A stretch of 64,000 nucleotides of DNA from an uncultured Isosphaeraceae bacterium (GTDB lineage: Bacteria > Planctomycetota > Planctomycetia > Isosphaerales > Isosphaeraceae): the NCBI GenBank assembly GCA_963823685.1, contig CAWGMM010000001.1, positions 60,355 to 124,354 of the forward strand. Direction: 5' to 3'. Made by a program: the position numbers and the translations under genes. Below are positions 28,547-56,000 of the stretch, piece after piece. Within the stretch, counting starts at the first letter, position 1. Every line of letters begins with the position of its first letter. The notes beneath the pieces are model-generated. The model saw nothing but the letters and a program-made list of their open reading frames with translations, ran no database searches and had not been told where the DNA came from.

Positions 28547-28915
28547 GATCGACCCCGTGCTGGAATGACCCTGCAAGGCGGCGTTCCTGGTGACTTTTCG
28601 GGTTGGATCGTGGGTGCGGAACTCGTTCGCGATCAAGGTGGCCGCCCTGCATTTCGCGGGCTGCCGCCGGGGTGCTCGGGTTCGATTTCCGGGTGGACAC
28701 CTGGTGAGCCTTCGACTGCGTTTTACCAGAACCGAGACGCTCCGTGCATCGTCTTTCCGTCCCGCGCACTCCATTTTGCCACCAACCGGCAGAACTCGGC
28801 GAACTCGCACCGCGGGGACGAAACCCGTCCGGGTTTCGTGGGTTTAATCGGTCATGCGACCGGTACAAAGGTCTCGCAACGTCGCCAACGCCCTCATTTC
28901 CCGGGAGGATGCGTG

Positions 28916-30382
28916 ATGCAGCGCCCCTGGCGATTCCTGATGTTGATGTGCCTCACGCTTACGGCCTCGAGCGAGGCGGCCGAGCCATCGATCAGGCCGA
29001 ACATCATCGTCATCCTGGCCGACGATTACGGTTACGGCAGCGCCGGCTGTTATGGCGGTCAGGGGGTGAAAACGCCGAACCTCGACCGGCTCGGTCGCGA
29101 GGGCCGTCGTTTCACCCAGGCCTACGCGCCGGGCTCGGTCTGCTCGCCGACCCGCTATGGCCTGATGACCGGCCGCTACTACTGGCGTACGAGTGTCAAG
29201 GATGGCGAGGTGCTCCCGGGCAACGCCCCGTTGCACATCGAGACCGACCGGATGACGCTCGCCTCGCTCTGCAAGGGCCAGGGCTACCGGACCGCCGCGT
29301 TCGGCAAGTGGCACCTGGGCCTGGGCTCGGAGCGAACCACCGACTGGTCCGTCACCTTGAAGCCCGGCCCCCTTGAGATCGGCTTCGACCACTTTTTCGG
29401 CCTGGCGGCCAATCCCTGGAACGGCCCCCACACCTTTATCGAGGATCGCGGGCTGACCGGCCGGGTCCCCGGCCAGCCGGCGATCGTCCAGGGCCAGCGC
29501 GAGCAGAGCACGACCAGCGGCATCACCCAGCCCTGGGACGAGACCCGGATCATGCGCACCCTCACCGATCACGCTGTCGCCTGGCTTGAACAGAACCAGG
29601 CCAACGGCCCCTGCTTCCTTTACTTCGCGCCCAACGCGGTCCACATGCCAGTGGTCCCGAATCGAGCGTTCCGAGGAAGTCCTCTGGGTTCCTACGGCGA
29701 CTTCATCTCCGAGCTCGACTGGTCCGTAGGCCAGCTTCTCGACGCGCTCGACCGGACACACACCGCGGACAAGACCCTCGTGATCTTCACCAGCGACAAT
29801 GGCGGCGTGGTGAACCCTAATAACGAACCGTCGTCCAGCGCCATGAAAGCAGGGCTGGCCATCAACGGCGCCCTGCGCGGGGGCAAACACGACATCTGGG
29901 AAGGTGGATTTCGCGAGCCGTTCCTCGTTCGATGGCCCGGCCGCGTCCCGGCCGGCTCGGTGAGCGACCAGGTGATCTGCGTGACGGACGTGCTCGCCAC
30001 GCTCGCGGGCATCCTCGGAGTTCCGCTCCCCGACGGCCAGGCCGAGGACAGCTTCGACGCGCGCGAAGCCTTCCTCGCCACTCATCCCGCCCGGCCCGTG
30101 CGCGACCACGTCATCCTTCAGGATGCCCACGCCACCTACGCCGTCCGGTCGGGCGACTGGAAACTGATCGAGCGGCGCGATGCTCCCTCATTCACCCCTC
30201 GCAACGCCGGCGCCGCCAAGAAGATCGCCGCGGCTCGCAAGAAGGAAGCCGGGCACGACGAGCTGTTCAACCTGGCCAGCGACCCGGCCGAAACCAGGGA
30301 CGTCCACGCCCAACATCCCGACGTCGTGGCCCGGCTCCGTCAACTCCTGGCCGATTCCCGCGGGAATGGGCACACGCGCTGA
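28916..30382 (+). CDS. sulfatase (formylglycine-dependent), divergent from the previous gene
   Basis: Signal peptide; IVILADDYGYG...SVCSPTR motif. Confidence 0.85.
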   Translation: MQRPWRFLMLMCLTLTASSEAAEPSIRPNIIVILADDYGYGSAGCYGGQGVKTPNLDRLGREGRRFTQAYAPGSVCSPTRYGLMTGRYYWRTSVKDGEVLPGNAPLHIETDRMTLASLCKGQGYRTAAFGKWHLGLGSERTTDWSVTLKPGPLEIGFDHFFGLAANPWNGPHTFIEDRGLTGRVPGQPAIVQGQREQSTTSGITQPWDETRIMRTLTDHAVAWLEQNQANGPCFLYFAPNAVHMPVVPNRAFRGSPLGSYGDFISELDWSVGQLLDALDRTHTADKTLVIFTSDNGGVVNPNNEPSSSAMKAGLAINGALRGGKHDIWEGGFREPFLVRWPGRVPAGSVSDQVICVTDVLATLAGILGVPLPDGQAEDSFDAREAFLATHPARPVRDHVILQDAHATYAVRSGDWKLIERRDAPSFTPRNAGAAKKIAAARKKEAGHDELFNLASDPAETRDVHAQHPDVVARLRQLLADSRGNGHTR

Positions 30383-30423: not shown

Positions 30424-31380
30424 TCACTCCGCGGTCGCGGGATCGCTCCCGCGCGTTCGCTCCAGTAACGTCTTCAACCGTTCCACTTCACTGGCGAGGG
30501 CATCCGCTCGCTGCCGTTCCTGTTCGGCATGCCGCTGCGCCTGTTCGGCATGCCGCTGCGCCTGTTCGGCATGCCGCTGCGCCTGTTCGGCGAGCCGTCG
30601 TTCCTGTTCGGCATTCTGCCGTTCCTGTTCGGCGAGCCGTCGTTCCTGCTCGGCATTCTGCCGTTCCTGTTCGGCGAGCCGTCGTTCCTGTTCGGCAAGC
30701 CGCTGCGATTGCTCGACTCGCTCGTAGCGCGTCAGAATCGGAGCCCCGGTGGTCCCATCGAACAGCCGCAACAGTGTGTCCTCGGCTTTCAATCCATAGC
30801 CGAGCTCCTCGCTGCGGAGGCGATCCTCGTCATCGCGCTCGAGGATCACGTAGCGGCCTTCGACGAGGCGGAAGCCCATTAACGGTGGTCGAAGGTATTC
30901 GCCTTCCGGGTCGAACAGGAAGTATTCGCGGACGCCCAGCCGCTCGTAGAGCCGGAGTTTCTCGCTCAGGTCTTCGCGCCAGGTGCTCAACGAGGCCATC
31001 TCGAACACAACGGCCGGAACCGCGCCATTCTTGCGCCAGGTGAAGAACGAACGACGGTGGGCTCGACCGCCTCCCTTGACGACCATGACATCAGGCGCGA
31101 CTCGCGACTCGGAATGGCCTTGTTGCCAGTACCAGAACATGTCGGCGGCGATGAAGTCGCTGGTGGATAAGTGGTCGAGCAACACCTCGAACAACGTGAG
31201 AATCGCCACGACATGAATGCCGGTCTCGCCCATGGGCTGTCCATCCGATGACGGATAGTCGATCTCATCGCGGTTCGGTGGAGGGAATGAGGGAGCGGCG
31301 AGAGACATTTGGTATTCCTCCTCGGGACCCAGACCCATCCTACATCGGATCGCGCTTTTCAGAAACCCGAAGCGAGACAT
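30424..31380 (-). CDS. Uma2-family (DUF820) PD-(D/E)XK nuclease-like protein with C-terminal coiled-coil heptad-repeat tail
   Basis: EYPSSDGQPMGETGIH...FIAADMFWYW...RVAPDVMVV...AVPAVVFEMASLSTWREDLSEKLRLYERLGVREYFLFDPEG Uma2 core; tail (AEQERRL/AEQAQRH) repeated about 9 times. Confidence 0.8.
   Translation of the reverse strand: MSRFGFLKSAIRCRMGLGPEEEYQMSLAAPSFPPPNRDEIDYPSSDGQPMGETGIHVVAILTLFEVLLDHLSTSDFIAADMFWYWQQGHSESRVAPDVMVVKGGGRAHRRSFFTWRKNGAVPAVVFEMASLSTWREDLSEKLRLYERLGVREYFLFDPEGEYLRPPLMGFRLVEGRYVILERDDEDRLRSEELGYGLKAEDTLLRLFDGTTGAPILTRYERVEQSQRLAEQERRLAEQERQNAEQERRLAEQERQNAEQERRLAEQAQRHAEQAQRHAEQAQRHAEQERQRADALASEVERLKTLLERTRGSDPATAE
30511..30712. repeat. 21-bp tandem repeat array (about 9.5 copies, unit ctgttcggcatgccgctgcgc with variants) encoding the heptad tail of the Uma2 gene
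   Basis: Direct reading of the sequence; the repeat is in-frame coding. Confidence 0.85.
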
Positions 31381-31447
31381 CGCACCTTCAATCGGTCAAT
31401 CGGTCCCAGGTCAACTCCGCGTGGCATTGACCTGGGAACATCGAGCC

Positions 31448-32566
31448 TCACAACAGGTTGACGACGCGATCGGTCAGTCCCTTCTCACCGAGCACGACGT
31501 TGAGGTGACCGGCCGCGGCGATCTTCTCGAGCGCCTCAAGCTCGCGGAGGCGCATCAGGAGCGGGTTATCCGCCAGCAGACGGGCCGTGTTGACCTGACT
31601 ACGGATCGCGGCCGTCTCCTCGCGGCGGGTCACCAGGTTGGCCTCGGCCGCCTTGCGGGCCTCGGTCACCTTGTTCATCAATTCCTTCATATCTCCCGGC
31701 AGGATGATGTCGCGGATACCTGTCGAGAGGACCTCCAGACCAAGCTCCCCCGCACGGCCGCGGAGCAGTTCCTCGGTCTCGCGCGAGACCACGTCCTTGT
31801 CCGTCAGCAGCGCGTCGAGGTCACGGACTCCAAGGACAGCCCGGAGCGCAAGCTGCGCCTCGCGGTAGAGCGCCTGCCGCGCGTCGTCCGTGGCGCAGAC
31901 GGCGCGCCGCGGGTCGATCACCCGGTAGACCACGACCACGTTGAGTCGCAAGGTGACCTTGTCGGCGGTCATGATCTCCTGACCGCCGACGTCGAGCGTT
32001 GCCTCCCGGAGATCGACCTCGACGACCCGTGCATCGGCCGCTCCGCGCCAGAACACGTACGAACCGGGCGGAAGCGTGTCGGCGTACGCGCCGTCGAGGA
32101 ACAGAACACCCACACAGCCGCGACCGACGTTGCAGGCATCGAGCCACAGGTTCGACGACGAGGCACGGACGATCGACCGCAGTTCGTCGTGCTCGAACCG
32201 AGCCCGGCGCGTGTCGACGACCTCGATCCGGACATCGCGGCGGCCCGTCCAGTACGCGTACAGGCCCGGCGGCAAGATGCCGCTGAACCGGCCCTCAACC
32301 CAGACCAGGCCGCGCTGGGTGTCCTTCAGATCGACAACCGCGGCGCAGCTCTTGAGCGCGCCCGACTTCACGATCATGTCGAGCTGTTCGTGAACGAGCT
32401 GCGGCGTCCGCTGCGAGACGATCTCGACCTTGACCCGACCGAGCGGGTCGAGGAACCAGTGCGTTCCCGCGCCGAGCAGGCCGCGGAACTCATCCGCGTG
32501 GAAGTAAAGGCCCATCTCGTAGCTGCGGACCTTGTATCGCTTGAGAGGAAACATCAGAGGGACCTC
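31448..32566 (-). CDS. SPFH/band-7 (stomatin/HflC-like) domain protein
   Basis: C-terminal SPFH core and coiled-coil (KVTLRLNVVVVYRVIDP...TGIRDIILPGDMKELMNKVTEARKAAEANLV); probable start MFPLKRY at 32566. Confidence 0.6.
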   Translation of the reverse strand, partial: EVPLMFPLKRYKVRSYEMGLYFHADEFRGLLGAGTHWFLDPLGRVKVEIVSQRTPQLVHEQLDMIVKSGALKSCAAVVDLKDTQRGLVWVEGRFSGILPPGLYAYWTGRRDVRIEVVDTRRARFEHDELRSIVRASSSNLWLDACNVGRGCVGVLFLDGAYADTLPPGSYVFWRGAADARVVEVDLREATLDVGGQEIMTADKVTLRLNVVVVYRVIDPRRAVCATDDARQALYREAQLALRAVLGVRDLDALLTDKDVVSRETEELLRGRAGELGLEVLSTGIRDIILPGDMKELMNKVTEARKAAEANLVTRREETAAIRSQVNTARLLADNPLLMRLRELEALEKIAAAGHLNVVLGEKGLTDRVVNLL

Positions 32567-32958
32567 CTTCCACCAGAAATTGCGTCCTGGTTTATCGAAA
32601 AACCAAGAATACACACTTTCACGTAAAAATGCCGTTGGGAGGCGAGGCGCTCGCCGGTCACACCTCGGGAAGCGGGGTACCGCTTGAGCCGTCCGGGCCG
32701 TCGGCGTCCGATCAACGCCGGGTGCTCGCCGGGGTCGAGACCCCGCGGTGCACGTCGAGCGATGACCATTCACCGGCGCCCGGGACGGCGGAATCCGCGG
32801 ACCGCAGGGCTCCCTTTTCGTGCTGCCGCTGCGCGGCCATTGCCTGTGAAGGCAACGCCAACGCGGCGGCCAACCAGGCGTTCGCCCGCCTCCCGCGGGC
32901 GCGTGGGTCGAGACGTTTTGACGCGTCTCGGGCTCGGTCGGTGTTCAGCCGACTGCGG

Positions 32959-33030
32959 AGCAGTGGACGGGAATCGAACCCGTAACGTCCAGGTTATCAG
33001 CCTGGTGCTCTACCCTTGAGCTACCACGTC
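32959..33030 (-). tRNA. tRNA-Ile (anticodon GAU)-like; cloverleaf is intact except for two mismatched acceptor-stem pairs (2-71, 3-70)
   Basis: D-arm GCTC-AAGGGTA-GAGC, anticodon arm CCAGG-CTGATAA-CCTGG, variable loop ACGTT, T-arm ACGGG-TTCGATT-CCCGT. Confidence 0.55.
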
Positions 33031-33448
33031 CTGATACCGCGAAGTTTTGATCCCAGTCACGGAACGCCCTGGACCGATCGTCGCGAGACGAGGCCGGTGC
33101 GCCGCTGGCTTGTCGGTATCAGTCGCTTGCCTGGAACTCATGCGAGGGCCATGGACTCACCCGGCTCTCGCAATTGACGCCGATGGGAATCGAACCCACC
33201 TCGACCAGAACGGACCACGTCGGTCTCCTGGCCGATTTTCCGGCCTCTCCGGCTCCAGCGTCTCGTCTTGCCTGTCGGGACTTGACTCGATTCGCGTCGC
33301 TTCGTGACCGACCTGTCGTCCTCGACATCGTTTTCATTTTCGTAGACGCGCGTGTTCCGCGCGATGTTCGCGCGGCATCGTTGCTTTTTCCTGTGACACG
33401 AACCCGTCGAACCGAGGTCACGCTCCAGGCAGGCGAATCGTCCTCGGG

Positions 33449-34393
33449 TCACTCCGCCAGACCACGCCTGGCCTGTTCCAGGAGTGCCTTCATGCGCTCG
33501 ACCTCTGCGGCGAGCCTGTCGGCACGCTGCCGCTCCTGCTCGGCCATTTGTCGTTCTTGCTCGGCCCGCTGCTGTTCCTTCTCGGCCCGCTGCTGTTCCT
33601 TCTCGGCCCGCTGTTGTTCCTTCTCGGCCCGCTGTTGTTCCTTCTCGGCCCGCTGCTGTTCCTTCTCGGCTCGCTGCTGTTCCTTCTCGGCCCGCTGCTG
33701 TTCCTTCTCGGCCCGCTCTCGGGGCGTCAACACCAGGGCGCCGGTGGTGTCGATGAGCCGGAGCATCACGCCCTCGCCTTTCAGCATGAAGCCCAGTTCT
33801 TCACTCGTGAGACGGTCGTCATCGTCCAGGTCAATCGGCACGTAGTGCCCGCCAACGAGACGAAAGCCGACCAGCGGTGGTCGAAGGTATTCGCCCTCCG
33901 GGTCGAACAGGAAGTATTCGCGGACGCCCAGCCGCTCGTAGAGCCGGAGTTTCTCGCTCAGGTCTTCGCGCCAGGTGCTCAACGAGGCCATCTCGAACAC
34001 AACGGCCGGAACCGCGCCATTCTCGCGCCAGGTGAAGAACGAACGGCGGTGGCCCCGGCCCACTCCCTTGACGACCATGACATCGGGCGCGACTCGCGAC
34101 CTGGGTTGGCCCTCTTCCCAGTACCAGAACATGTCGGCGGCGATGAAGTCGCTGGTGGGCAGGACATCATGCAGCACCTCGTACAGGAAGATGATCGCCA
34201 GGACGTGAAGGCCGGTTTCACCCATGGGCTGTCCATCCGATGAGGGATACTCGACCTCGTCACGGTGCGATGAGGCGATCAACTGGGTGGTGATGGACAT
34301 GAGCACTTCTCCGCGATACCCGCATCCCTCTGGACCCCGACAACCCGTGCTGACTCGCGAGACCTCGAAATCCGGCTTCAACCCGGTACTCAA
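33449..34393 (-). CDS. Uma2-family (DUF820) nuclease-like protein, paralog 2, with a different heptad-repeat tail
   Basis: Core of about 180 aa nearly identical (also at nucleotide level) to 30424-31380; tail AEKEQQR repeated 8 times. Confidence 0.8.
   Translation of the reverse strand: MSTGLKPDFEVSRVSTGCRGPEGCGYRGEVLMSITTQLIASSHRDEVEYPSSDGQPMGETGLHVLAIIFLYEVLHDVLPTSDFIAADMFWYWEEGQPRSRVAPDVMVVKGVGRGHRRSFFTWRENGAVPAVVFEMASLSTWREDLSEKLRLYERLGVREYFLFDPEGEYLRPPLVGFRLVGGHYVPIDLDDDDRLTSEELGFMLKGEGVMLRLIDTTGALVLTPRERAEKEQQRAEKEQQRAEKEQQRAEKEQQRAEKEQQRAEKEQQRAEKEQQRAEQERQMAEQERQRADRLAAEVERMKALLEQARRGLAE
33530..33725. repeat. 21-bp tandem repeat array (about 8 copies, unit cttctcggcccgctgctgttc) encoding the heptad tail of Uma2 paralog 2
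   Basis: Direct reading of the sequence. Confidence 0.85.
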
Positions 34394-34548: not shown

Positions 34549-34677
34549 TCACTTGCCGAGCATCTTGGCCCCGACCCAGATAACGATGGCCCCCAGCACT
34601 CCGCCCCCGCAGAGCAAATAGGCCGCGGAATACCGCCACGCCGCGACGGCAAGCGGTAACATCTCGTAATATTCCAT
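34549..34677 (-). CDS. putative 42-aa single-TM peptide (MEYYEMLPLAVAAWRYSAAYLLCGGGVLGAIVIWVGAKMLGK)
   Basis: ORF only; hydrophobic helix with C-terminal lysines. Confidence 0.25.
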   Translation of the reverse strand: MEYYEMLPLAVAAWRYSAAYLLCGGGVLGAIVIWVGAKMLGK

Positions 34678-34964
34678 CGATCTCCCCTTCGGTGATAGGT
34701 AGAGGGTTTGAGGCGGTGAATCGATGATCGCCTCTCTGATGGAAACGTCACGAGCAAACCACATGCCGGAATCCACTTCCGGAACCGTCACCGCCCGCGA
34801 GATCGAAGCTGTTGGCATACCAGCGTCGCCGGGTCATGGTTAACGCAGTTCGGCCTGTCGTGGCGTTACGACGTCTTCGTGGTCACGTGAGAACGACAAT
34901 GAGGAACGACAGGCTGTCCAACTTCGAAAGGGCAAACCCCTGGATTTCCAGGGGTTTTGCCGGA

Positions 34965-35007
34965 TATGCCCGGCAGGACTTGAACCTGCAACCTTTAGCT
35001 CCGGAGG
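34965..35007. repeat. 43-bp direct repeat identical to the 3' end of tRNA-Arg(CCG) at 42307-42349 (att site, distal end of the integrated element)
   Basis: atgcccggcaggacttgaacctgcaacctttagctccggaggc is present identically at both positions. Confidence 0.85.
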
Positions 35008-35208
35008 CAAAAAGCCTACCGACGTAAGTGATGCCATCAAAGAACTTACGTCGAGTGATCCCGGCCGTTGCACTGTACGTTGCTCCAACATTGGTGAAAC
35101 CGACCCGCTGGCCGCGTTCGTCGCCGGCCTGACCGATGCCGACCGGCAACGGCTCGCCTCCCTCTTGCTCGACAAGGCCGAAGGGTCCGACCGAGGGGGG
35201 CTTGACCA

Positions 35209-35391
35209 ATGACCGAAACCGTCGTGACCTGCGATCGGTGCGGAACCCGGATCGATACCGATCGATCGAACCTGGCGAGTGTGTGCGGGCCGATTCGAGC
35301 GCGGCGGGCGGAGATCGATCTTTGTATGGCGTGCGTGGATGCATTCGAGACGTGGCTTCAACGCGGGATCGGGCGGGAGGAACGAGCATGA
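35209..35391 (+). CDS. small zinc-ribbon-like protein (CxxC...CxxC)
   Basis: VTCDRCGTRIDTD...LCMACVDAF four-Cys arrangement; ORF only. Confidence 0.3.
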   Translation: MTETVVTCDRCGTRIDTDRSNLASVCGPIRARRAEIDLCMACVDAFETWLQRGIGREERA

Positions 35392-36026
35392 GCGACCACA
35401 CCAACGGGACCGGGACCGAGAAGCGGAACAAACGAGGGCGACCGACGGTGCTGACCGAGGCCGTCCAGGCGACGATCCTCGCGAACCTGCGAGCGGGGAA
35501 CTATCTGGCGACGTCATGCCGCGCGGCGGGGATCTCGCCGCGAACCCTGGAAACCTGGCGACAACGGCATCGCGAGGGCGATCCGCGAGCGGATCGGCTG
35601 ACCGATTTCGTTCGGTGCGTCAAAAAGGCGATCTCCGAGGGCGAAACGGACTTGCTGGGGAAGGTTCGCGCCGGCGGACCGGGTTGGCAAAGCGCCGCGT
35701 GGATCTTGGAGCGAAGGTGGCGGGATCGATGGGGACGGAACCCCAACGTGGTTGTGAGCAGCGCGACGACCGGATACCGGACCGGAAGAACCCTTGGAAC
35801 CGGATTTCTCCGGTTTCGACGTCGGCGAGCTGGAAGCGTACCGCGATATGACGCGGCGAGCGTATGGCTCGTCCGGGTCCGCTCAACCCGCAAAAGCGCG
35901 GTAGAGTACACGCATCGGGACGGTCGCACTCCGGCCAGAGTTCGACCAAGCGGACCCGGTCGGCGCGCGGACCCCCTGCCCGCCACCGACTGGGTCCGAC
36001 CCGTATTGCAGGGGGACTCTCCATGA
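35388..36026 (+). CDS. phage terminase small subunit-like HTH protein
   Basis: KRGRPTVLTEAVQATILANLRAGNYLATSCRAAGISPRTLETWRQRH...AWILERRWRDRWGRN resembles the TerS N-terminal HTH family; ATGA overlap with the next ORF. Confidence 0.45.
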   Translation: MSDHTNGTGTEKRNKRGRPTVLTEAVQATILANLRAGNYLATSCRAAGISPRTLETWRQRHREGDPRADRLTDFVRCVKKAISEGETDLLGKVRAGGPGWQSAAWILERRWRDRWGRNPNVVVSSATTGYRTGRTLGTGFLRFRRRRAGSVPRYDAASVWLVRVRSTRKSAVEYTHRDGRTPARVRPSGPGRRADPLPATDWVRPVLQGDSP

Positions 36027-36673
36027 CGTCATCGCGAGACGCGCTCCGGGTATCGGAGCGGTTGCTCCAGTTAATTCATTCGGGATCGCTACCATCCCTA
36101 GGTCGGCTGACCTGGGATCGGACCGCGCCGCAACCACACATCATCAACTGGCTGCGGACGACGCTGGCGGCTCTCAACGAGTGGGTGAGCGGTCCGGTCG
36201 CGACCGATGACGATCCGCGAATCCGCGCCGCGCGGGAGCTGGTCCGATCCCTGCACGATCGTCTGTGTCCGCGACTTGACAATATCGCGAGCGGACGGGA
36301 TGGGATCACACTTGATGATGCGTCGAAACTCGTGGACGCGATCGTGATATTGCAAGACGCCGCACTGGATGATGCCGACGAACCCGAACCCGCGTGCTCT
36401 GAACCGGAGGGCTCGGGCGCGTCGGCGCGCCGTGCTGGCGACGATCTGACCGAGACAGAGGACAACATCCTCAAGGCATGCGGTGAGCTTGGAGCGTACG
36501 ACCTGCGATCGGCGCGGACCAAGGACGAGATTGCGCGGCGGGCCGGGTATACCTCAAGTGCCGCCCGGAACGTTCGGTCCGCGTTCGAATCGCTGAAAGC
36601 ACGCGGCATTACAACCGCCAAACGCAAGTCCGGGACCTGGCTCACACACGCCGGGCGCGAATTCGTGTCATAA
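36023..36673 (+). CDS. hypothetical protein with C-terminal winged-helix DNA-binding domain
   Basis: C-terminal ILKACGELGAYDLRSARTKDEIARRAGYTSSAARNVRSAFESLKARGI wH-like segment. Confidence 0.4.
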   Translation: MTSSRDALRVSERLLQLIHSGSLPSLGRLTWDRTAPQPHIINWLRTTLAALNEWVSGPVATDDDPRIRAARELVRSLHDRLCPRLDNIASGRDGITLDDASKLVDAIVILQDAALDDADEPEPACSEPEGSGASARRAGDDLTETEDNILKACGELGAYDLRSARTKDEIARRAGYTSSAARNVRSAFESLKARGITTAKRKSGTWLTHAGREFVS

Positions 36674-36785
36674 ATGTCAGCCGGCCTGACACGAATGGGG
36701 TCATTTTTGACACGAATCCACACGGCTATACTTCTCACGTCGGCCACGCACTGTGCAGGTCGAGACTCGACATCAGGAGTCCGCC

Positions 36786-37010
36786 ATGTCCGCATCCGCA
36801 TCCGCAACGATCGAGAGTCCGGTTGAGCTGATCGACGTCCGCGAAGTCGCGCGGATGCTGAGCATCAGCGAACGACATATCTGGCGATCCGAGGACCGGG
36901 GGCTGATGCCGCGCGGCGTGCGAATCGGCGCGTCCGTCCGCTGGTCGCGCTCCGCGCTCGAAAAGTGGATCAACGACGGTTGCCCGCCGGTCCGCAAACC
37001 CGCGCGATGA
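36786..37010 (+). CDS. AlpA-family phage transcriptional regulator / excisionase-like HTH protein
   Basis: LIDVREVARMLSISERHIWRSEDRGLMPRGVRIGASVRWSRSALEKWI matches the AlpA/Xis HTH pattern. Confidence 0.65.
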   Translation: MSASASATIESPVELIDVREVARMLSISERHIWRSEDRGLMPRGVRIGASVRWSRSALEKWINDGCPPVRKPAR

Positions 37011-37143
37011 CGCGCCGCCGGTCGAACCCCGTGGTCTGACCCCCCCGAAGGGTTTGACCCGTCAACCTATTCCGACATCGGTGAATCAACAAACGAAAAT
37101 GCCCGCCAGGTGCCGCGAAGTCCTGGCGGGCGGAGGCGTCGCT

Positions 37144-37626
37144 ATGCGCAAACGTCTGTCTGATATCGTACCATCGACCGAGGCGGAGTCAATCCGCCGG
37201 ACCTGGGACTCGACCGAGGCCGCGCCCGAAATGGGTCCGCTGCCGGCCGGAGAGTACCGTTGCATCGTCGAGTCCATCGACGTGCATGTGGCGAAATCGG
37301 GAACACCCGGCGTCAAAGTCGCGATGCGCGTTCACGATCCGGCTGCGTTCAAAGGTCGCAAGCTATGGGCCGATCACTGGCTCACTCCGGCCGCGCTCCC
37401 GATCACCAAGCGCGAGATCAAGCATCTCGGAATCGAGACGCTCGACGATCTGGAGAGACCTCTGCCGACCGATCGGCACATCATCATGAAGTGCTGCGTC
37501 ATTGTCCGAAAGGACGACGATGGGACCGAGCGGAACCGAGTCCGAAGCTGGGAGTTCGACGGCATCGCCACGCCGCAAGACGTCGAGCCGTTCGCGCCTC
37601 CCGCCGATGGGGAGGTCCCGTACTGA
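37144..37626 (+). CDS. hypothetical protein (element-borne)
   Basis: ORF only. Confidence 0.3.
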   Translation: MRKRLSDIVPSTEAESIRRTWDSTEAAPEMGPLPAGEYRCIVESIDVHVAKSGTPGVKVAMRVHDPAAFKGRKLWADHWLTPAALPITKREIKHLGIETLDDLERPLPTDRHIIMKCCVIVRKDDDGTERNRVRSWEFDGIATPQDVEPFAPPADGEVPY

Positions 37627-39559
37627 CATGGGCTCGACCCCCTGCCCGTTCGGGTTCCGAATCCAGGGTCCGACGCACGGGACACGGCATCTCATCGATT
37701 GGGATGCCGCGTTCCGGGCCTATGCCAGTCTCGACCCCCGGATCGACCCGAGCCAAGAGGCATATCTATCTGCGTTCACGTTCCCGGTCGAGTTTCAGGG
37801 ACCATCTTCGCTCGACCGGCTCGACGCGCGGCTACGCTGGCCGTTGCGGGGCTCGCTGGCTGTGGTGGGACATCGACCGGGAAGACAATCCGGGGCACGC
37901 CCTGGCGGACGCCAAGCGGCTTGTTGGCTCGTTGCTCGCCCGGTTCAAGTCGCTCGACGATGCCGACGTTCTGGCGTTCTTCTCCGGGAGCAAGGGATTC
38001 CATGTCGGCAAACCGATGTTCTGGGAACCCGAGCCGACCGCGACGTTTCACAAGGCGGCTCGACGGCTCGCCGAGCGGTTCGCGGCCGATGGTCGCGATC
38101 ACCATCGACGCGGGGTCTATGACAGCGTGCGCGCGTTTCGCGCTGCCCAACTCGCGTCATCCGAAGACCGGTCTGTTCAAGCGCCGGATTGACCATGACG
38201 CGCTCATGAGTTTGTCGATCGACGGCATCCGCCGGCTCGCCGAGCAACCCGCCGAGTTCGACCTGCCGGACCCGCGTCCGTCCGCCGCCGACGTCGCCAC
38301 CATGCGGAGCCTTTGGTCCGAAGCCAACGCCCATGACGCCAAACACAGCCGAAGGGTCCGACGCCAGGGGGCTCGACAACGGGCCGGCTCAACCGTCAGA
38401 CGTTCGATTTCATCCAGCGACGGGGCGGGGCCTGGCGACCGTCATCGGTTGCTGTTCTCCGCCGCCGCGAACCTGGCGGAGTTCGGTTGCTCGCCCGAAC
38501 TTGGCTTATGCGTTGCTCGCCGAGTCCGCGCTCGATTCGGGCCTGAGTCCGTTCGAGGTCCGCCGTCAGATTGGGTGCGGGCTTGCTCATATAAAAGGAC
38601 AACCGACATGAAGGGACCGGGGTTCGTCAGCGCGGCCGACGCTATTGGCTCATGGCGGGATCGACGTGCTCTCCGGTCGCAAGCCGACGCTCTGGACGGT
38701 CGGCATCGGGGGGCCTGGCGTCGGTGGAGATCGGGCCGGGGTTCATCGTGCTCATCGGTGCGCCGCCAGGGGCGGGTAAGACCGCGCTGGTCTGTCAGAT
38801 GACGCTCGACGCCTTGCGGACCGAGCCGTCGCTCAGGTGCTCGATCGCCAACGTTGAGGTCTCGCCCGCCGTCTTGCTCGACCGCCAGCTTGCCCGGCTT
38901 GGCGGGATCAACCTGGCAGAGATCCGGCATCGCCGGCTTGGTGCCGAGCATGCCGACCGGCTGGACTCGGGGGTTGGCCGCGATCGAGGGAATCGCCGAC
39001 CGACTCGCGTTCCTGGAATCGCCGTTCGACCTGCGCGAACGTGGCCGCATCGGCGGATACGTTCGGGGCGGACCTGATCGTCATCGACTACGTCCAACGC
39101 TTCGGCTCGCCCGGTTCGCAAGGGGACGGCCGGGTATCGATGAACGCGCTCATGGGGTTCCTGCGCGAGTTCGCCGACGCGGGCTGCGGGCTCATCGTGG
39201 TCTCGTCGGTCGCGCGGCAAAAGGACTCCAAGGGTGGTTCGTCATACGAAGATCTCAACATCGCGTCATTCCGGGAGTCGAGCGAACTGGAGTTCGGGGC
39301 GGACTCGGCTTTCATGCTGGTTGCCGACCCGGACGACGCCTCAAGCGTGACTCTCCGATGCTTGAAGAATCGCCACGGCGAGCCGGTTGACGTCGCCCTG
39401 CGATTCGACGGGGCTCGCCAGTCATTCACGCCTCGCGAGGCGGACGGGCCGAAGGGCAAGCCGTCGAGCAACGAGCAAGCCCTGCGCGACCTGGCGGAAC
39501 TATGGGGACGGACCCCGCCGGCCGATGACGACGCGGGGGACGATGCCGATGGGTACTGA
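37624..39559 (+). pseudogene. primase-helicase: AEP-type primase (Prim-Pol) + PriCT-like + DnaB-like P-loop helicase, split over at least 4 frames
   Basis: AEP motifs (AYLSAFTFPVEF; WDIDREDN; SGSKGFHV; NSRHPKTG), PriCT-like RHRLLFSAAANLAEFG, Walker A GAPPGAGKT, Walker B DLIVIDYVQ, arginine finger KNRHGE, distributed over overlapping ORFs in different frames. Confidence 0.6.
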
Positions 39560-40013
39560 CGCGCTGGCGGAACACGCTCGACGGCTGGCGGAGCTGGATG
39601 CGAGGGAAGCCGCCGCGCGTCGAGCCAGGGGCGAGCCGGACCCGCCGCCGCCCGAACCCAAGCCGCGCCCGGATCGACCCGCCGATCGGACCCGCCAGGG
39701 ACGGGGCCAGCCGAAGGGTCGGACGCGCGGACGCGAGTTCGCTCGACGCCAGGCGATCCGCAATGCGTTCGCGGACTGCCTTGCCGGGCTCGACCGGGGG
39801 GAGATCGCCGTGTGGGTCCTGCTCGACCGGGACACCAAGCCGGACGGAGCCGCGACGTGCCGCTCAATCCGACCTGGCGCGTCGGGCCGGGATCAACCCC
39901 CGGACGGTCCGCCGCGCTCTCGATTCGCTCGTTGCCGGGGACTGGTCAAGATCGTCCGCCAGGGGGGTTTCAACCGTGGCATGTCCACTTATCGAATTTG
40001 CAAACCTTCATGA
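39549..40013 (+). CDS. winged-helix/HTH protein (frameshifted, two frames)
   Basis: LARRAGINPRTVRRALDSLVAG in one frame and GLVKIVRQGGFNRGMSTYRI in another. Confidence 0.35.
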   Translation: MGTDALAEHARRLAELDAREAAARRARGEPDPPPPEPKPRPDRPADRTRQGRGQPKGRTRGREFARRQAIRNAFADCLAGLDRGEIAVWVLLDRDTKPDGAATCRSIRPGASGRDQPPDGPPRSRFARCRGLVKIVRQGGFNRGMSTYRICKPS

Positions 40014-40015
40014 AT

Positions 40016-40094
40016 CCCACAGAGGGCATGGGTGTCCGGTTGACCCCCTCCCACAGAGGGCATGGGTGTCCGTCACAGAGGGCATGGGTGCCCT
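40016..40094. repeat. three direct repeats of cacagagggcatgggtg(t/c)cc: iteron-like, candidate replication origin or recombinase arm sites
   Basis: Sequence at 40016-40037, 40051-40073 and 40075-40094, immediately downstream of the primase-helicase region. Confidence 0.6.
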
Positions 40095-40206
40095 ATATCC
40101 CAGTGTCTTACCCCTACGGGGTGAAGACACACGCACTGAGGTACTGACGTGCTGACGCACACGTACCCCAGTGCGGTTCGTAGGTCATCAGATCGGTAGG
40201 TAGTCG

Positions 40207-40602
40207 ATGCGCATGCCGTTCGGACAACATCGTGGTTGCATGCTTGCAGACGTTCCTGATCGCTACCTTTGGTGGGCGATCCGGGAAGCCGGCGCGACGG
40301 TCGATCGGTATCCCGGCTTGCGGCGTGCGATCGATATCCGCCTGGGAGTCCCGTACGCGAGCCCAACGGCCGGACCGTCCAAACCCCCGCCGACCGGCTC
40401 AACGTCGCGCCACGCGGACGCCAGGGCACTTGTCGAGTGCGTTCGCGGCGTGCTCAAGATCGCGTACCGCGAAGAGTCGATGCGATGCCATCCCGATCGG
40501 GGTGGATCGACCGACCGAATGATCGGGATCAATGAACTCAACGACCGGCTCAACGCGCTACTCGACCGGCAACTATCCGAATTTCTCAAGCAACGGTCTT
40601 GA
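40207..40602 (+). CDS. small protein with DUF3820/QSregVF_b-like N-terminus and C-terminal J-domain (HPD motif)
   Basis: MPFGQHRGCMLADVPDRYLWWAI; ...YREESMRCHPDRGGSTDRMIGINELNDRLN. Confidence 0.45.
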   Translation: MRMPFGQHRGCMLADVPDRYLWWAIREAGATVDRYPGLRRAIDIRLGVPYASPTAGPSKPPPTGSTSRHADARALVECVRGVLKIAYREESMRCHPDRGGSTDRMIGINELNDRLNALLDRQLSEFLKQRS

Positions 40603-40675
40603 ATGTCGCGGGTAAAGTGTGTAGACTGAATCGCGCCTTGATGAAATGGTGTAGGCTCGACGGGAGAATGGATCG

Positions 40676-42352
40676 ATGGGCAACGTTTACCGGAAGCAAG
40701 TGACCCGCCCGTTGCCGCCAGGGGCGGAGATCATCGAACGCAAGGGCGAACGGCTCGCCCGCTGGCGGGATGCCAGGGGCAAGATCCGAACCGCCCCCCT
40801 GACCGAATCCGGGGACCGCATCCGGGAAACGTCCCGGACGTTCCATGCCCGCTACCGGACCGGAGAGGGAACCATCGCCGACGTTCCGACCGGCTGCCGA
40901 GATGAGCAAGCCGCGCGGGCCGTTCTCGCCGACCTGGAGAAGCGGGCCGAAATGGTCAAGGCCGGAATCCTCAAGACCGCCGAGTTGCAAACCGCCGATC
41001 ATGCCCGGACGCCGATCGCCGAGCATTTCGATGCCTACCTGAACCATCATGACGCGGCCGGATCGGTCGCGTTGCATCGCCACAACGTTCGGACCTACCT
41101 GGATCGGATCGCCGCTGACTGCGGATTCCGCCGGCTCGCCGACCTGGATCGGTCCGCGTTCGAGAGCTGGCTGTCCCGCGAGACCAAACGCGGCCGGTCG
41201 GCCCGGTCCCGGAACACGCACCGGGCAACGCTCATCGCGTTCTGTCACTGGTGTTCCAGGCCGGAGGTTGCCCGGTTGGCGTCCAACCCGTTCAAGGGAA
41301 TCCCGAAAGCGGATGAGAAAGCGGACCCCCGCCGCAAGCGCCGGGCCATGACCGAGAGCGAGTTGACCCGGTTGCTCGACGTCGCCCGGACCCGCCCGCT
41401 GACCGAGGCCCTGACCGTCAGGAGAGGCAAGGCGAAGGGTTCGACCCATGCCAAGGTCCGCCCGGAGGTCCGCGAACGGCTCGACGCTCTCGGCCGGGAA
41501 CGCGCGTTGATCTACAAGACGCTCATCCTGACCGGACTTCGCAAGGGCGAGTTGACGAGTCTGACGATTGGTCAAGCCTGTCTCGACGGACCCCGCCCGT
41601 ACCTGGACCTGAGTGCGGCGGACGAGAAGAACCGGGAAGGGGCCTGGCTGCCCCTGCGGGCCGACCTGGCGGACGACTTGCGGCAATGGCTTGCCGACCG
41701 GCTGACATCGCTCCAAGACGACGCCAGGGGCCAAGGCGAGCCGATCCCGGTCCGATTGCCCGCCGACATGCCGTTGTTCAACGTTCCGGCCGGTCTGATC
41801 CGCATTTTCGACCGGGACTTGAAAGCCGCTGGGATCGCCAAGCGCGACGACCGAGGCCGGACGCTTGACGTCCATGCCCTGCGGACGTCGTTCGGCACGC
41901 TCTTGAGCGCGGGCGGGGTTCCATTGCGGACGGCTCAAGCCGCGATGCGGCATTCCGACCCCAGCTTGACCGCGAACGTGTATACCGACCCCCGGTTGCT
42001 CGACGTGGCCGGAGCGCTCGACGCCCTGCCGGCGCTTCGGCTCGACCGTCCCGACGTCGATAGCATGCGTGCGACCGGGACGGTCGGCGGGTCGAACCCT
42101 TCGGCTCGTTTGTGCCAGGGGCCTGTCACGTCCGTTGCACTAAATGTTGCTGCGAATCCGTGCAACGAGAGACAAGGAAGTTCAATTGGTGGCAAAATGA
42201 ACAGGACCGACCTGGAATTGGCCGGTCCTGATCGGTTCGCCGTAACTTCCATCTCTGACAGGGGAAATCATCTCGTGTCATTGCCTGACACTGGCTTCCC
42301 CTCAGTATGCCCGGCAGGACTTGAACCTGCAACCTTTAGCTCCGGAGGCTAA
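40676..42352 (+). CDS. int: tyrosine-type site-specific integrase; ORF runs into the tRNA-Arg gene
   Basis: Catalytic region LDVHALRTSFGTLL...RTAQAAMRHSD...ANVYTD (R..H..R..Y arrangement); N-terminal SAM-like/arm-binding domains. Confidence 0.85.
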   Translation: MGNVYRKQVTRPLPPGAEIIERKGERLARWRDARGKIRTAPLTESGDRIRETSRTFHARYRTGEGTIADVPTGCRDEQAARAVLADLEKRAEMVKAGILKTAELQTADHARTPIAEHFDAYLNHHDAAGSVALHRHNVRTYLDRIAADCGFRRLADLDRSAFESWLSRETKRGRSARSRNTHRATLIAFCHWCSRPEVARLASNPFKGIPKADEKADPRRKRRAMTESELTRLLDVARTRPLTEALTVRRGKAKGSTHAKVRPEVRERLDALGRERALIYKTLILTGLRKGELTSLTIGQACLDGPRPYLDLSAADEKNREGAWLPLRADLADDLRQWLADRLTSLQDDARGQGEPIPVRLPADMPLFNVPAGLIRIFDRDLKAAGIAKRDDRGRTLDVHALRTSFGTLLSAGGVPLRTAQAAMRHSDPSLTANVYTDPRLLDVAGALDALPALRLDRPDVDSMRATGTVGGSNPSARLCQGPVTSVALNVAANPCNERQGSSIGGKMNRTDLELAGPDRFAVTSISDRGNHLVSLPDTGFPSVCPAGLEPATFSSGG

Positions 42353-42379
42353 CGCTCTATCCAATTGAGCTACGGGCAC
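42306..42379 (-). tRNA. tRNA-Arg (anticodon CCG)
   Basis: Acceptor GTGCCCG/CGGGCAT (G1-U72 wobble), D-arm GCTC-AATTGGATA-GAGC, anticodon arm TTAGC-CTCCGGA-GCTAA, T-arm GCAGG-TTCAAGT-CCTGC. Confidence 0.8.
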
Positions 42380-53096: not shown

Positions 53097-56000
53097 TGTC
53101 GGGCACGTCTAGCCAGCGTCGCGCGGGCACCCTCATCCGGACCTCGGCCGGAGTGCTCGTCTGCGGGCTGATCGCGGGGCTGGGCCTGGGGCTGAACCGG
53201 GCCGAAGCCGAAGCCGAGACCGAGACCAGGACCGATGCCGATACCAGTCCGGCGGCGGTCGAGTTCTTCGAGCGCGAGGTCCGGCCGATCCTGGTCGAGC
53301 GCTGCCAGGGGTGCCACGGGCCGTCGAAATCGAAGGCGGAGTTACGGCTTGACTCGCGCGAGGCGGCGCTGGCCGGCGGGCAGAGCGGGCCGAGCGTCGT
53401 ACCGGGAAAACCGGGGGAAAGCCTGCTGATCGAGGCGATCAACTACGGCGACCTCCAGAAGATGCCTCCCAGGTCAAAGCTCCCCGCCGCGAGATCGACG
53501 CCCTGACCCGCTGGGTCGAGATCGGCGCTCCCTGGCCCTCGACGACGACCACGACAGCGGGCGGGGAATCCAGGGCCGGCGGACCGCCCGCCCGCTTCAA
53601 CCTGGAAGAACGCGCGGCGCGGCACTGGAGCTTTCAGCCGCTGGGGAACCCTCCCCTGCCCCGGGTCGTTCAGACCGGCTGGGCCCGGTCGCCGATCGAT
53701 CGATTCATCCTCGCGGGCCTGGAGTCGAAGGGCCTGGCGCCCGCTCCCGAGACCGATCGGCGGACCTGGCTCCGCCGGGTGAGCTTCGATCTGATCGGAT
53801 TGCCTCCCACCCCCGACGAGATCGCCGCGTTCCTGAACGACCGATCGCCCGCGGCCTACGAGACGGTGGTCGAGCGGCTCCTGGCCTCGCCCCGTTACGG
53901 CGAGCGATGGGCGCGGCACTGGCTCGACCTGGTGGCGTTCGCCGAGACCTCCGGGCACGAGTTCGACTACGAGATTCCCGATGCCTACCGATACCGCGAC
54001 TACCTGATCCGGGCCTTCAACGCCGACCTGCCCTACGACGAGCTCGTGGTCGAGCACCTGGCGGGCGACCTGCTCGCCAGCCCGCGCGTGCACCCGGCCG
54101 AAGGGTTCAACGAGTCGGTCCTGGGAACCGGTTTCCTCTTCATGAACGAAGGGACCCACTCGCCGGTCGATCTGCTGGAGGACGAAGCAACCCGGGTCGA
54201 TCACCAGATCGATGTCCTGTCCAAGACGTTCCTCGGCCTGACGGTCGCCTGCGCCCGGTGCCACGACCACAAGTTCGACCCGATCAGCACCCGCGACTAC
54301 TACGCCCTGGTCGGCTATTTCCACAGCTCGCGGCACCAGCACGCGTTCATCGATCCGCCGACGCGGATCGGGGCGAAGGTCGCGGAGCTGTCGGCGATCA
54401 AGCAGGCGCTCGCCCCGTTCGTAGCCGAGGCCAGCGCTTCCATTTCGTCCGAGCCGGATCGGGACGACGAGCCCGCGGCCGCGGCTCCGGCCGGATCGAC
54501 CCACGACGACGGCTCGGTCGTCTTCGAGAGCTTCGACGGTCCCGACTTCATCGGCTGGTCGAACACCGGCGACGCCTTCGGCCCCCGGCCCGACGCGCCC
54601 GGGCGACTGGCGGGTACGATCGGGAACGGGAAGCGAGGGCGAGGGCGAGGCCAAGGGCAAGGGCAAGGGCAAGGGCAAAAGCAAGGGTAAGGGCGAGAGC
54701 GAGGGCGATGGCGACGCGGCCGAGGTCGTCGCCCCCGGACTGGCGCACAGCGGACTGTCGGCCGATCGGCTTCAGGGGGTGCTCCGATCGCGGCACCTTC
54801 CGGATCGAGAAGCCCCTGATCCTGGTCCGGGCGGCGGGCCGCCAGGGACGGATTCAACTCGTCATCGACGGCTTCGAGAAGATCCGCGCGCCGATCTACG
54901 GCGGCCTGTCGATCGCCGTCAAGGCCGAGACGCCCGCCTGGTACACGATCGACGTGACGATGTGGCAGGGACACCGGGCCTACCTCGAGATGATCGACGG
55001 CGCCGCGCTCGACTACACGGGGGGTCCGACCCGGTACGCGCCGGGTGACGGCTACCTCGCGGTCGACGAGATCCGGTTCGCCGACACGAAGCCACACGGA
55101 AAGGACTCCGGACCGGGACGAGGGTTTGGCCGGACGGTCCTCGACCTGGGCCGATGCGCCGCGCCTTGCGGGCGCATCCGTGGGACGCCGAGTTGATCCG
55201 GTATCGCGCGGTGGCGTCGGCGATTCCCGAGCCGAACCTGGGGCTATCGATCGCCGACGGGACCGGCGAGGACGCCCACGTCCAGATCCGCGGCAGTACC
55301 CGGAACCTGGGCGACGTGGTCCCGCGCCGGTTCCTGGAGGCGATCGCTGGCAAGGACCAGAGCGCGCCGTCGACCGAGCCCGCCGCGGGAAGCGGCCGGC
55401 TCGACCTGGCGCGGCGGGTGGTCGATCCGTCGAATCCGCTCCTGGCCCGGGTGCTGGTCAACCGGGTCTGGAAGCACCATTTCGGCGAGGGGATCGTCCG
55501 CACCCCGGACGACTTCGGCCTGATGGGCCGGCCCCCCAGCCATCCCGAGCTACTCGACGACCTGGCCCGCCGGTTCATCGCAGGCGGATTCTCGATCAAG
55601 AGCCTGCACCGCCTGATCGTCCTGTCGAGCACCTACCGGATGTCGAGCGATCCGGCGACGGGCCATGGCGGCGACTCGTCGGCCGAACAGGTCGATCCCA
55701 GTAACGAGCGGCTGCATCGGATGAACCTGCGCCGGCTCGAGGCCGAGGTCCTGCGCGACACGCTGCTGTCGATCTCGGGGCGGCTCGACCCGCGCTGTAC
55801 GGTCCCAGCGTCGCCCCCTACCTGACGCCCTTCATGGACGGCCGGGGCCGTCCCGCGCGCATCGGGACCGCTCGACGGCGACGGCCGGCGCAGCATCTAC
55901 CTCAACGTCCGCCGCAACTTCCTGAACCCGCTGTTGCTCGCCTTCGACTTTCCGACGCCGTCGTCCCCCATGGGCCGGCGCAACGTCTCGAACGTCCCCG

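Follow-up and report, generated by a model that had tools for sequence, protein, structure and literature searches.

The Uma2/COG4636 proteins (DUF820; PF05685) are among the largest bacterial families that have a clear nuclease fold and no known function. They have been described as predicted nucleases and as possible selfish elements or solo toxins, and the family is expanded in cyanobacteria and Thermus and forms cassettes of paralogs (PMC551604, PMC2701414, PMC3424549, PMC1274311). Its genes make up about 2% of those of Gloeobacter (PMC551604), its H-PD-EXX-K active-site variant was defined by Feder and Bujnicki in 2005 (PMC551604), and Uma2 has been treated as a possible solo toxin (PMC2701414). 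In the literature that we searched, no activity or role was reported for any Uma2 protein. Here we describe two such genes, A and B, which lie on either side of an SPFH gene and a tRNA-Ile-like gene in a window of 64,000 nt (the whole stretch of DNA that was analysed) from an uncultured Isosphaeraceae bacterium. Our reading, to which we assign a probability of about 0.8, is that A and B are old, diverged paralogs of a stalked type of Uma2/COG4636 putative PD-(D/E)XK nuclease and that their neighbours are coincidental.

The described COG4636 proteins (Tt1808, PDB 1wdj; Ava_3926, PDB 3ot2; all3650; PMC551604) have the fold and the H-PD-EXX-K motif in common with A and B. According to the same paper, members of the family are solitary genes in erratic neighbourhoods, present as paralogs within a genome and sometimes adjacent, with neither a methyltransferase partner nor an assigned function, and in all of this A and B are alike. 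They differ from the solved members, which are 150-190 aa long and tailless, in adding a heptad-repeat helix of 80-100 residues and a terminal motif; PMC551604 is silent on coiled coils. The host differs as well, being planctomycete-like and not a cyanobacterium or Thermus. The G+C content is about 64%, and the best Uma2 relatives are found in Gemmataceae metagenome-assembled genomes (MAGs).

Uma2 core and its homogenised patch

The features of the two genes, both encoded on the minus strand, are the following.

30424..31308, minus strand: gene A, Uma2/COG4636 family protein of 294 aa (P0002); from the list of open reading frames (ORFs), Pfam Uma2 (E 1.3e-19) and the database-annotated start
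30883..31164, minus strand: putative gene-conversion patch of gene A, codons 49-142, spanning the PD, EXX and K catalytic elements; 127-nt perfect run at 30905-31031
30520..30708, minus strand: heptad array of gene A, nine 21-bp units; Tandem Repeats Finder (TRF) 30513-30703, periods 21/42, scores 214/260
30457..30519, minus strand: C-terminal amphipathic motif of gene A, ERQRADALASEVERLKTLLER, kept across the family
33449..34300, minus strand: gene B, Uma2/COG4636 family protein of 283 aa (P0001); from the ORF list, Pfam and the database-annotated start
33875..34156, minus strand: putative gene-conversion patch of gene B, counterpart of that in gene A; 127-nt perfect run at 33897-34023
33536..33703, minus strand: heptad array of gene B, eight 21-bp units, then ERQMAEQ; TRF 33519-33717, 89% matches, score 300
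33473..33535, minus strand: C-terminal amphipathic motif of gene B, ERQRADRLAAEVERMKALLEQ, kept across the family

The maximal minus-strand ORFs are slightly longer than the annotated genes (30424..31380 for A and 33449..34393 for B). Both proteins match the Pfam Uma2 model, PF05685, at 70.8 and 73.1 bits (gathering threshold 27), and no NCBIfam model matches either of them. The AlphaFold2 model of the gene B protein, built with 71 homologs, reached a mean predicted local distance difference test (pLDDT) score of 91.9 and has an alpha-beta core of the PD-(D/E)XK type followed by one helix at residues 193-280. When this model was compared with the PDB by Foldseek, the only significant matches were Uma2/DUF820 structural-genomics entries (9y1l, 6okh, 3ot2, 1wdj, which is Tt1808, and 3ijm; probability 1.0), of which 9y1l was also matched at the sequence level. 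All of them are 150-190 aa long, and none has a tail or a known function. Both A and B have the putative catalytic residues H32, P72-D73, E103 (with x-x-S106 after it) and K117. In the alignment of 71 sequences, E103, S106, Y129, F132, D133, R181 and E266 are invariant, and E28, H32, P72, D73 and K117 are at least 90% conserved. The original prediction, which was made from the letters alone, had assigned the proteins to the PD-(D/E)XK Uma2/DUF820 domain, and the Pfam scores, the model and the structural matches bear this out; it had also named missing catalytic residues as grounds for doubt, and the residues are there. Judging from fold and motif, A and B would be Mg-dependent phosphodiesterases. 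That a function is not established, as the prediction also said, agrees with PMC551604, PMC2701414 and PMC3424549, which give none for Uma2.

As proteins, A and B turned out to be 65% identical overall (BLASTP E 4e-137). Their gap-free core of 552 nt is 81% identical, with 105 differences. Identity rises to 94% in a 282-nt patch, codons 49-142, which holds the longest perfect run (127 nt), while the remaining 270 nt of the core are 67% identical; a run of that length never occurred in 100,000 random placements of the 105 differences (permutation p<1e-5). The core had been called "almost nucleotide-identical" over about 550 bp, and the cores "identical", which overstates the likeness: the nucleotide alignment of the two loci confines near-identity to codons 49-142.

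The kind of change differs as sharply as its amount. The patch has 81 identical codons, 5 with synonymous and 8 with non-synonymous changes, against 30, 33 and 42 in the rest of the core (Fisher p 8.6e-11), and among the codons for identical residues synonymous changes number 5/86 in the patch versus 33/63 outside it. The relationships are mosaic, too. In the N- and C-terminal segments of the core, the nearest relatives of A, and likewise of B, are metagenomic proteins from elsewhere and not the neighbouring copy (in the N segment, for example, P0013 is 83% identical to B and A is 72% identical to B), and in the patch A and B are mutual closest relatives, with 91% protein identity versus at most 84% for the best outsider (82-84%). 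The similarity between the genes starts near the start codons and stops near the stop codons, and the flanking DNA is unrelated. Because synonymous change is nearly absent from the patch, the relationships are mosaic and the flanks are unrelated, the patch points to gene conversion between old paralogs and neither to a recent duplication nor to an assembly duplication. By these comparisons, a patch of about 280 bp over the predicted catalytic centre is homogenised between the copies. Gene conversion had been proposed in the original prediction next to recent duplication; the synonymous contrast and the mosaic relationships favour the former, and the latter does not agree with copies that are old paralogs whose outer core parts have closer relatives elsewhere. 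The two genes are direct repeats only 3 kb apart, and recombination within the 127-nt identical run could delete the segment with the SPFH and tRNA genes and give a chimera of the head of one protein and the tail of the other.

Stalk of repeated heptads

Each core is followed by a tail of tandem repeats. TRF found 9.1 copies of a 21-bp unit with a 42-bp super-period in gene A and 9.5 copies in gene B, and its scores of 214-300 are far above chance. In gene A, the units read SQRLAEQ, then ERRLAEQ/ERQNAEQ alternating 2.5 times, then three nucleotide-identical copies of AQRHAEQ; in gene B, EQQRAEK stands seven times, with 0-2 nt of difference between copies, and EQQRAEQ and ERQMAEQ follow. That the two tails are built of different 21-bp units, as first suggested, is plain both from TRF and from the in-frame layouts. 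Both tails run into the common motif ERQRAD(A/R)LA(S/A)EVER(L/M)K(T/A)LLE. The segment between core and motif has 82 residues in A, the upper end of the range among the homologs compared, and 74 in B, where a one-residue deletion in the hinge puts it one residue out of register. In the gene B model, the tail is one uninterrupted helix of 88 residues, for which a length of about 13 nm is predicted (0.15 nm per residue).

The same plan recurs widely. Of 2,461 homologs, the best 120 were taken, and the terminal motif as well as the core end (LRLxD) is present in 73 of these. In 68 of the 73, 12+7n residues (n = 0-10) separate the core from the RADALAAEVERLKALL motif, and where two cores are 85-95% identical, the proteins differ by 1-6 heptads. 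We also used TRF on 80 related Uma2 loci from different species and several phyla and found tail arrays with a period of 21, 42 or 126 in 36 of them. Many of these arrays have 95-100% identity between units, and the units are lineage-specific; since both hold, the arrays point to independent recent expansions in the relatives. At the sequence level, the heptads are encoded by in-frame 21-bp tandem units, and the length of the stalk changes in steps of 7 residues, or a predicted 1 nm approximately. The number of units would change by slipped-strand mispairing or unequal recombination. Repeat-mediated length variation had been suggested for the locus, and the heptad-quantised spacers, the differences of 1-6 heptads at near-identical cores and the fresh 21/42-bp arrays support it. 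The tail of one Pirellulales MAG (L010) has a 33-bp (11-residue) tandem unit, about 583-671 nt past the start of the match, and this is the sole non-heptad periodicity among the tail arrays seen.

We then collected 359 heptad units, whose consensus is R-A-E-Q-E-R-Q and whose composition is E 24%, R 20%, Q 18.5%, A 17% and K 5%. A single position of the heptad is apolar (Ala 75%, Val 13%), and three residues further on stands Glu (72%) or Ala (22%). These units lack the hydrophobic a/d seam of a canonical two-stranded coiled coil, and the only amphipathic part of the tail is the terminal motif, L-x-x-x-V-x-x-L-x-x-L-L. The earlier description of the tails as coiled coils thus fits only in part. 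In composition, the modelled stalk is like a charged single alpha-helix; a coil with an Ala core is another possibility.

The stalked subfamily as a whole has a core of about 190 aa, a hinge (xTGxPxxTxxER), the charged-heptad helix, the motif RADxLAAEVERLKALL and a disordered Gly-rich end. The order of hinge, repeat helix of very variable length and AE(V/L)xRL(K/R)xxL motif is also found in relatives from several phyla, among them Planctomycetota, Chloroflexota, Acidobacteriota and Armatimonadota. In the terminal motif of gene B, E266 is invariant and L263, R269, L270 and L274 are nearly so. A profile of this motif, searched against 1.84 billion representatives, matched the C-termini of proteins of 190-340 aa, almost always with a Uma2 core, and also hit unrelated generic coiled coils. 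The motif is likely a short zipper or docking helix, and the stalk would be a stiff spacer, adjustable in length, that keeps the nuclease head apart from this terminal interaction motif. The stalked sub-architecture occurs widely in the family, and no account of a stalked Uma2 variant was found in the searchable literature, by which measure it is undescribed.

Surroundings of the genes and rival readings

The layout of two Uma2 genes around an SPFH gene and a tRNA-Ile-like gene was as originally predicted, with ORFs, Pfam, ARAGORN and Rfam in agreement, and the features noted at the locus are real. The following serve as context.

31448..32554, minus strand: SPFH/Band_7 gene between the paralogs (Pfam Band_7 E 4e-29); its maximal ORF reaches 32773, with a probable ATG at 32554
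32957..33030, minus strand: tRNA-Ile(GAT)-like gene (ARAGORN; Rfam tRNA, 59.2 bits)
34965-42352: integrated element of 7.3 kb in tRNA-Arg(CCG); the tRNA is at 42305-42379, minus strand

Band_7 covers residues 143-313 of the 368 of the SPFH protein, and the N-terminal part of about 140 residues has no Pfam match; the protein shows only distant similarity to HflK, and no NfeD-type partner is adjacent. A divergent pair of sulfatase genes (PF00884; 26984-28810, minus strand, and 28565-30382, plus strand) lies directly downstream of gene A and, taken with the G+C content and the Gemmataceae relatives, hints at a planctomycete as host. Between the att repeat of the island and gene B there is an ORF of 89 aa (34549-34818, minus strand, the strand of gene B), with a hydrophobic C-terminal stretch and no Pfam match. 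A scan for sigma-70 promoters found none, and terminator-like matches within the repeat arrays were rejected as repeat artefacts. Well outside the Uma2 locus, at 54633-54714, there is a tandem repeat based on hexanucleotides (GCGAGG/AGGGCA, about 12-14 copies; periods of 12 and 18 were also scored).

The tRNA-Ile(GAT) gene has two adjacent non-canonical pairs in the acceptor stem, A2.G71 and C3.U70, and no encoded CCA. The label "tRNA-Ile-like" is fair because of these two mismatches, and the gene could be a decaying or unusual tRNA. A second tRNA-like element, at 33175-33263 (minus strand) between the tRNA-Ile and gene B, combines an irregular interior with a canonical T arm (GGTTCGATTCC) and an acceptor stem of 7 perfect base pairs; apart from a relaxed ARAGORN call, its only match is a weak one to Rfam tRNA-Sec (21.8 bits, E 0.73), and it may be a tRNA remnant that marks an old integration site.

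A tRNA-targeted island directly beside gene B had been predicted as well and is confirmed by its ends and its integrase. The island is bounded by a 47-nt direct repeat of the 3' part of tRNA-Arg(CCG), at 34965-35011 and 42306-42352 (98% identical), and contains a tyrosine integrase gene (40676-42352, plus strand; PF00589 at 42.3 bits), an AlpA/HTH_17 gene (36753-37010) and a DUF669-like ORF (37054-37626), with no Pfam match for the other ORFs. About 600 nt upstream of the integrase ORF, at 40015-40094, stand three tandem copies (two identical, one 79%) of the 24-nt motif TCCCACAGAGGGCATGGGTGTCCG, which may be binding sites of a recombinase or regulator. Both Uma2 genes lie outside the att repeats, the 5' side of gene B ending at 34300, and the repeats at 34965-35011 and 42306-42352 exclude both genes as cargo of the island.

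The arrangement had been taken to suggest a mobile or defence-associated module. In full, this alternative joins both Uma2 genes with the SPFH gene and the tRNA in one module, either mobile or for anti-phage defence, in which the nucleases are the effectors, and takes the position beside a tRNA island to reflect mobility. It draws on the place of the locus between two tRNA-type elements and next to the tRNA-Arg island, on the listing of COG4636 among restriction-type cargo genes (PMC8649781) and on PADLOC, in which both proteins gave weak, partial matches to the candidate PDC-S03 (E 1.4e-11 to 1.9e-5, 22-42 bits); these matches probably reflect the shared Uma2 fold. We found no paper on PDC-S03 in the literature searched, and the SPFH protein has no PADLOC match, which speaks against its part in such a module. 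So do the att repeats, which leave both genes outside the island, and the segment of gene A and the SPFH gene, around which no bounding repeat of the tRNA-Ile 3' end was found.

The neighbourhoods of the relatives argue in the same direction. Around the 80 related Uma2 loci, with 116 immediate flanking ORFs, a tblastn search with the SPFH protein of the window found a homolog within 6 kb of none (0/80). All-against-all clustering of the ORFs gave no conserved neighbour except in a small syntenic Gemmataceae subset with a PolA/Rho context. A Pfam scan of the flanking ORFs returned 136 families, none in more than 4 ORFs, the commonest being Rho, a further Uma2 gene and Hsp70. The flanking genes are thus scattered housekeeping types that differ from locus to locus (Rho, Hsp70, PolA, aconitase and others), and the survey that the original prediction had suggested gave no defence context. 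The sole recurrent neighbour outside syntenic loci is another Uma2 gene. Cyanobacteria have been reported to show the same pattern: the genes are placed erratically, and no neighbour recurs but a further family member (PMC551604; PMC2701414). Synteny between the related loci and the window is limited to sulfatases, which recur at 3 loci and are abundant in such genomes. No cognate methyltransferase gene stands by the Uma2 genes, whose neighbours in the window are the sulfatases, the SPFH gene and the tRNAs, and a generic methyltransferase domain occurs in only 2 of the 116 flanking ORFs. Neither is there a recognisable small antitoxin gene, as a type II toxin-antitoxin partner, beside either Uma2 gene, and none recurs at the related loci. 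Relatives were found neither on any of 2.9 million viral contigs nor in a fold search of BFVD, which speaks against a phage origin. With no SPFH neighbour, no recurrent partner, no viral relatives and both genes outside the island, we consider the module quite unlikely. Uma2 genes proliferate as solitary genes, occasionally side by side; the SPFH gene, the tRNA-like genes and the tRNA-Arg island would then be present by coincidence. A conflict-type role may nonetheless hold for the family as a whole, whose members, in line with proposals of earlier authors, would be solo genes of a selfish or conflict type.

Less probable still is a recent segmental duplication, after which the tails and the outer core diverged fast while purifying selection held the catalytic centre. 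In its favour, the identical patch is the most conserved, catalytic part of the protein, and the copies are direct repeats at a distance of 3 kb. Selection on the protein leaves synonymous differences, however, and third positions differ in only 8/94 codons of the patch against 44/90 outside. The amino acids of the patch vary among the other homologs (82-84% for the best outsider against 91% between A and B), each copy has closer relatives than its neighbour beyond the patch, and the flanking DNA is not shared. An assembly artefact, by which the patch or the arrays would stem from collapsed or duplicated sequence in a metagenome assembly, is hardly credible: although the contig of 225 kb is of metagenomic type and has no second copy in the databases, and although short reads give little hold on the size of near-perfect 21-bp arrays that span 150-190 bp, the copies differ in flanks, N-termini and tails and by the 105 core differences, so that neither is a duplicated contig segment, as had been feared, both ORFs are intact and match the family-wide architecture, and a direct repeat crossed twice (X-R-Y-R-Z) would allow a single path in which heads and tails are not swappable.

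The reading of A and B as old, stalked Uma2 paralogs with coincidental neighbours has points against it, too. To call the proteins nucleases is to argue from their fold and conserved motif only. Helix-helix packing, as in a weak two-stranded coil with an Ala core, would also account for an Ala stripe that is conserved and for a period of strictly 7 residues. Clustering at 90% identity leaves each protein on its own, hence copy-number variation within this population is out of view, and the copy numbers in the near-perfect arrays could be mis-assembled from short reads; the exact counts of repeat units are the only part at risk from assembly error. Finally, the weak PDC-S03 matches leave room for a defence role, and an effect of the hotspot is possible, since the locus is part of an integration hotspot rich in tRNAs.

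Meaning and comparison with known systems

The locus itself is ordinary, and paralogs, gene conversion and in-frame repeats are the outcome of usual processes. Its interest lies in what it belongs to, a large subfamily in several phyla with a heptad-quantised stalk whose length changes between near-identical proteins and whose end is a conserved motif. Experimenters thus have two concrete variables to alter, the length of the stalk and its terminal motif. Annotators, in turn, should expect the repeat counts in stalked Uma2 genes to be labile and possibly mis-assembled. A bolder idea, which we think unlikely, is that the stalk acts as a tunable molecular ruler that sets, in steps of about 1 nm, the distance from the nuclease head to a zipper-held partner or second head, and that 21-bp changes together with conversion of the core serve diversification. 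If true, conflict nucleases that stand alone would make up a very large class so far unrecognised, one with a mechanism of its own for diversification, and the 20-year-old Uma2/COG4636 enigma would have its first functional handle.

Three known systems invite comparison. Streptococcal M proteins and similar proteins with in-frame tandem repeats come in different sizes because heptad-based repeats within their genes recombine or slip. As in A and B, a helical rod is made from short in-frame DNA repeats, and close relatives differ by whole units. M proteins are, however, surface-anchored dimeric coiled coils under immune selection, whereas A and B have the nuclease core as their only annotated domain and repeats with no hydrophobic seam at a/d.

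In the HsdS subunits of the type I restriction systems EcoR124I and EcoR124II, the gap in the recognition sequence depends on how often a short repeat occurs in the central helical spacer. The likeness is that in both cases a family of nucleic-acid enzymes has a helical spacer whose length follows the number of short in-frame repeats. The HsdS spacer separates two DNA-recognition domains and its effect is proven, while the Uma2 stalk is C-terminal to a single nuclease domain, and the Uma2 genes have neither a methyltransferase nor an HsdR partner.

Charged single alpha-helices of the ER/K type are known as spacers, for instance in myosin VI and X. The Uma2 stalk differs from them in being richer in Q and A, in its strict 7-residue period and in its conserved Ala position, and its monomeric state is only hypothetical. 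The resemblance lies in the repeats of the type found in A and B, which consist of about 50% E, R and K, plus Q and A, with hardly any large hydrophobic residues, and in the one long, straight helix that is predicted; like these spacers, the modelled Uma2 stalk could plausibly be a stiff spacer between two functional ends.

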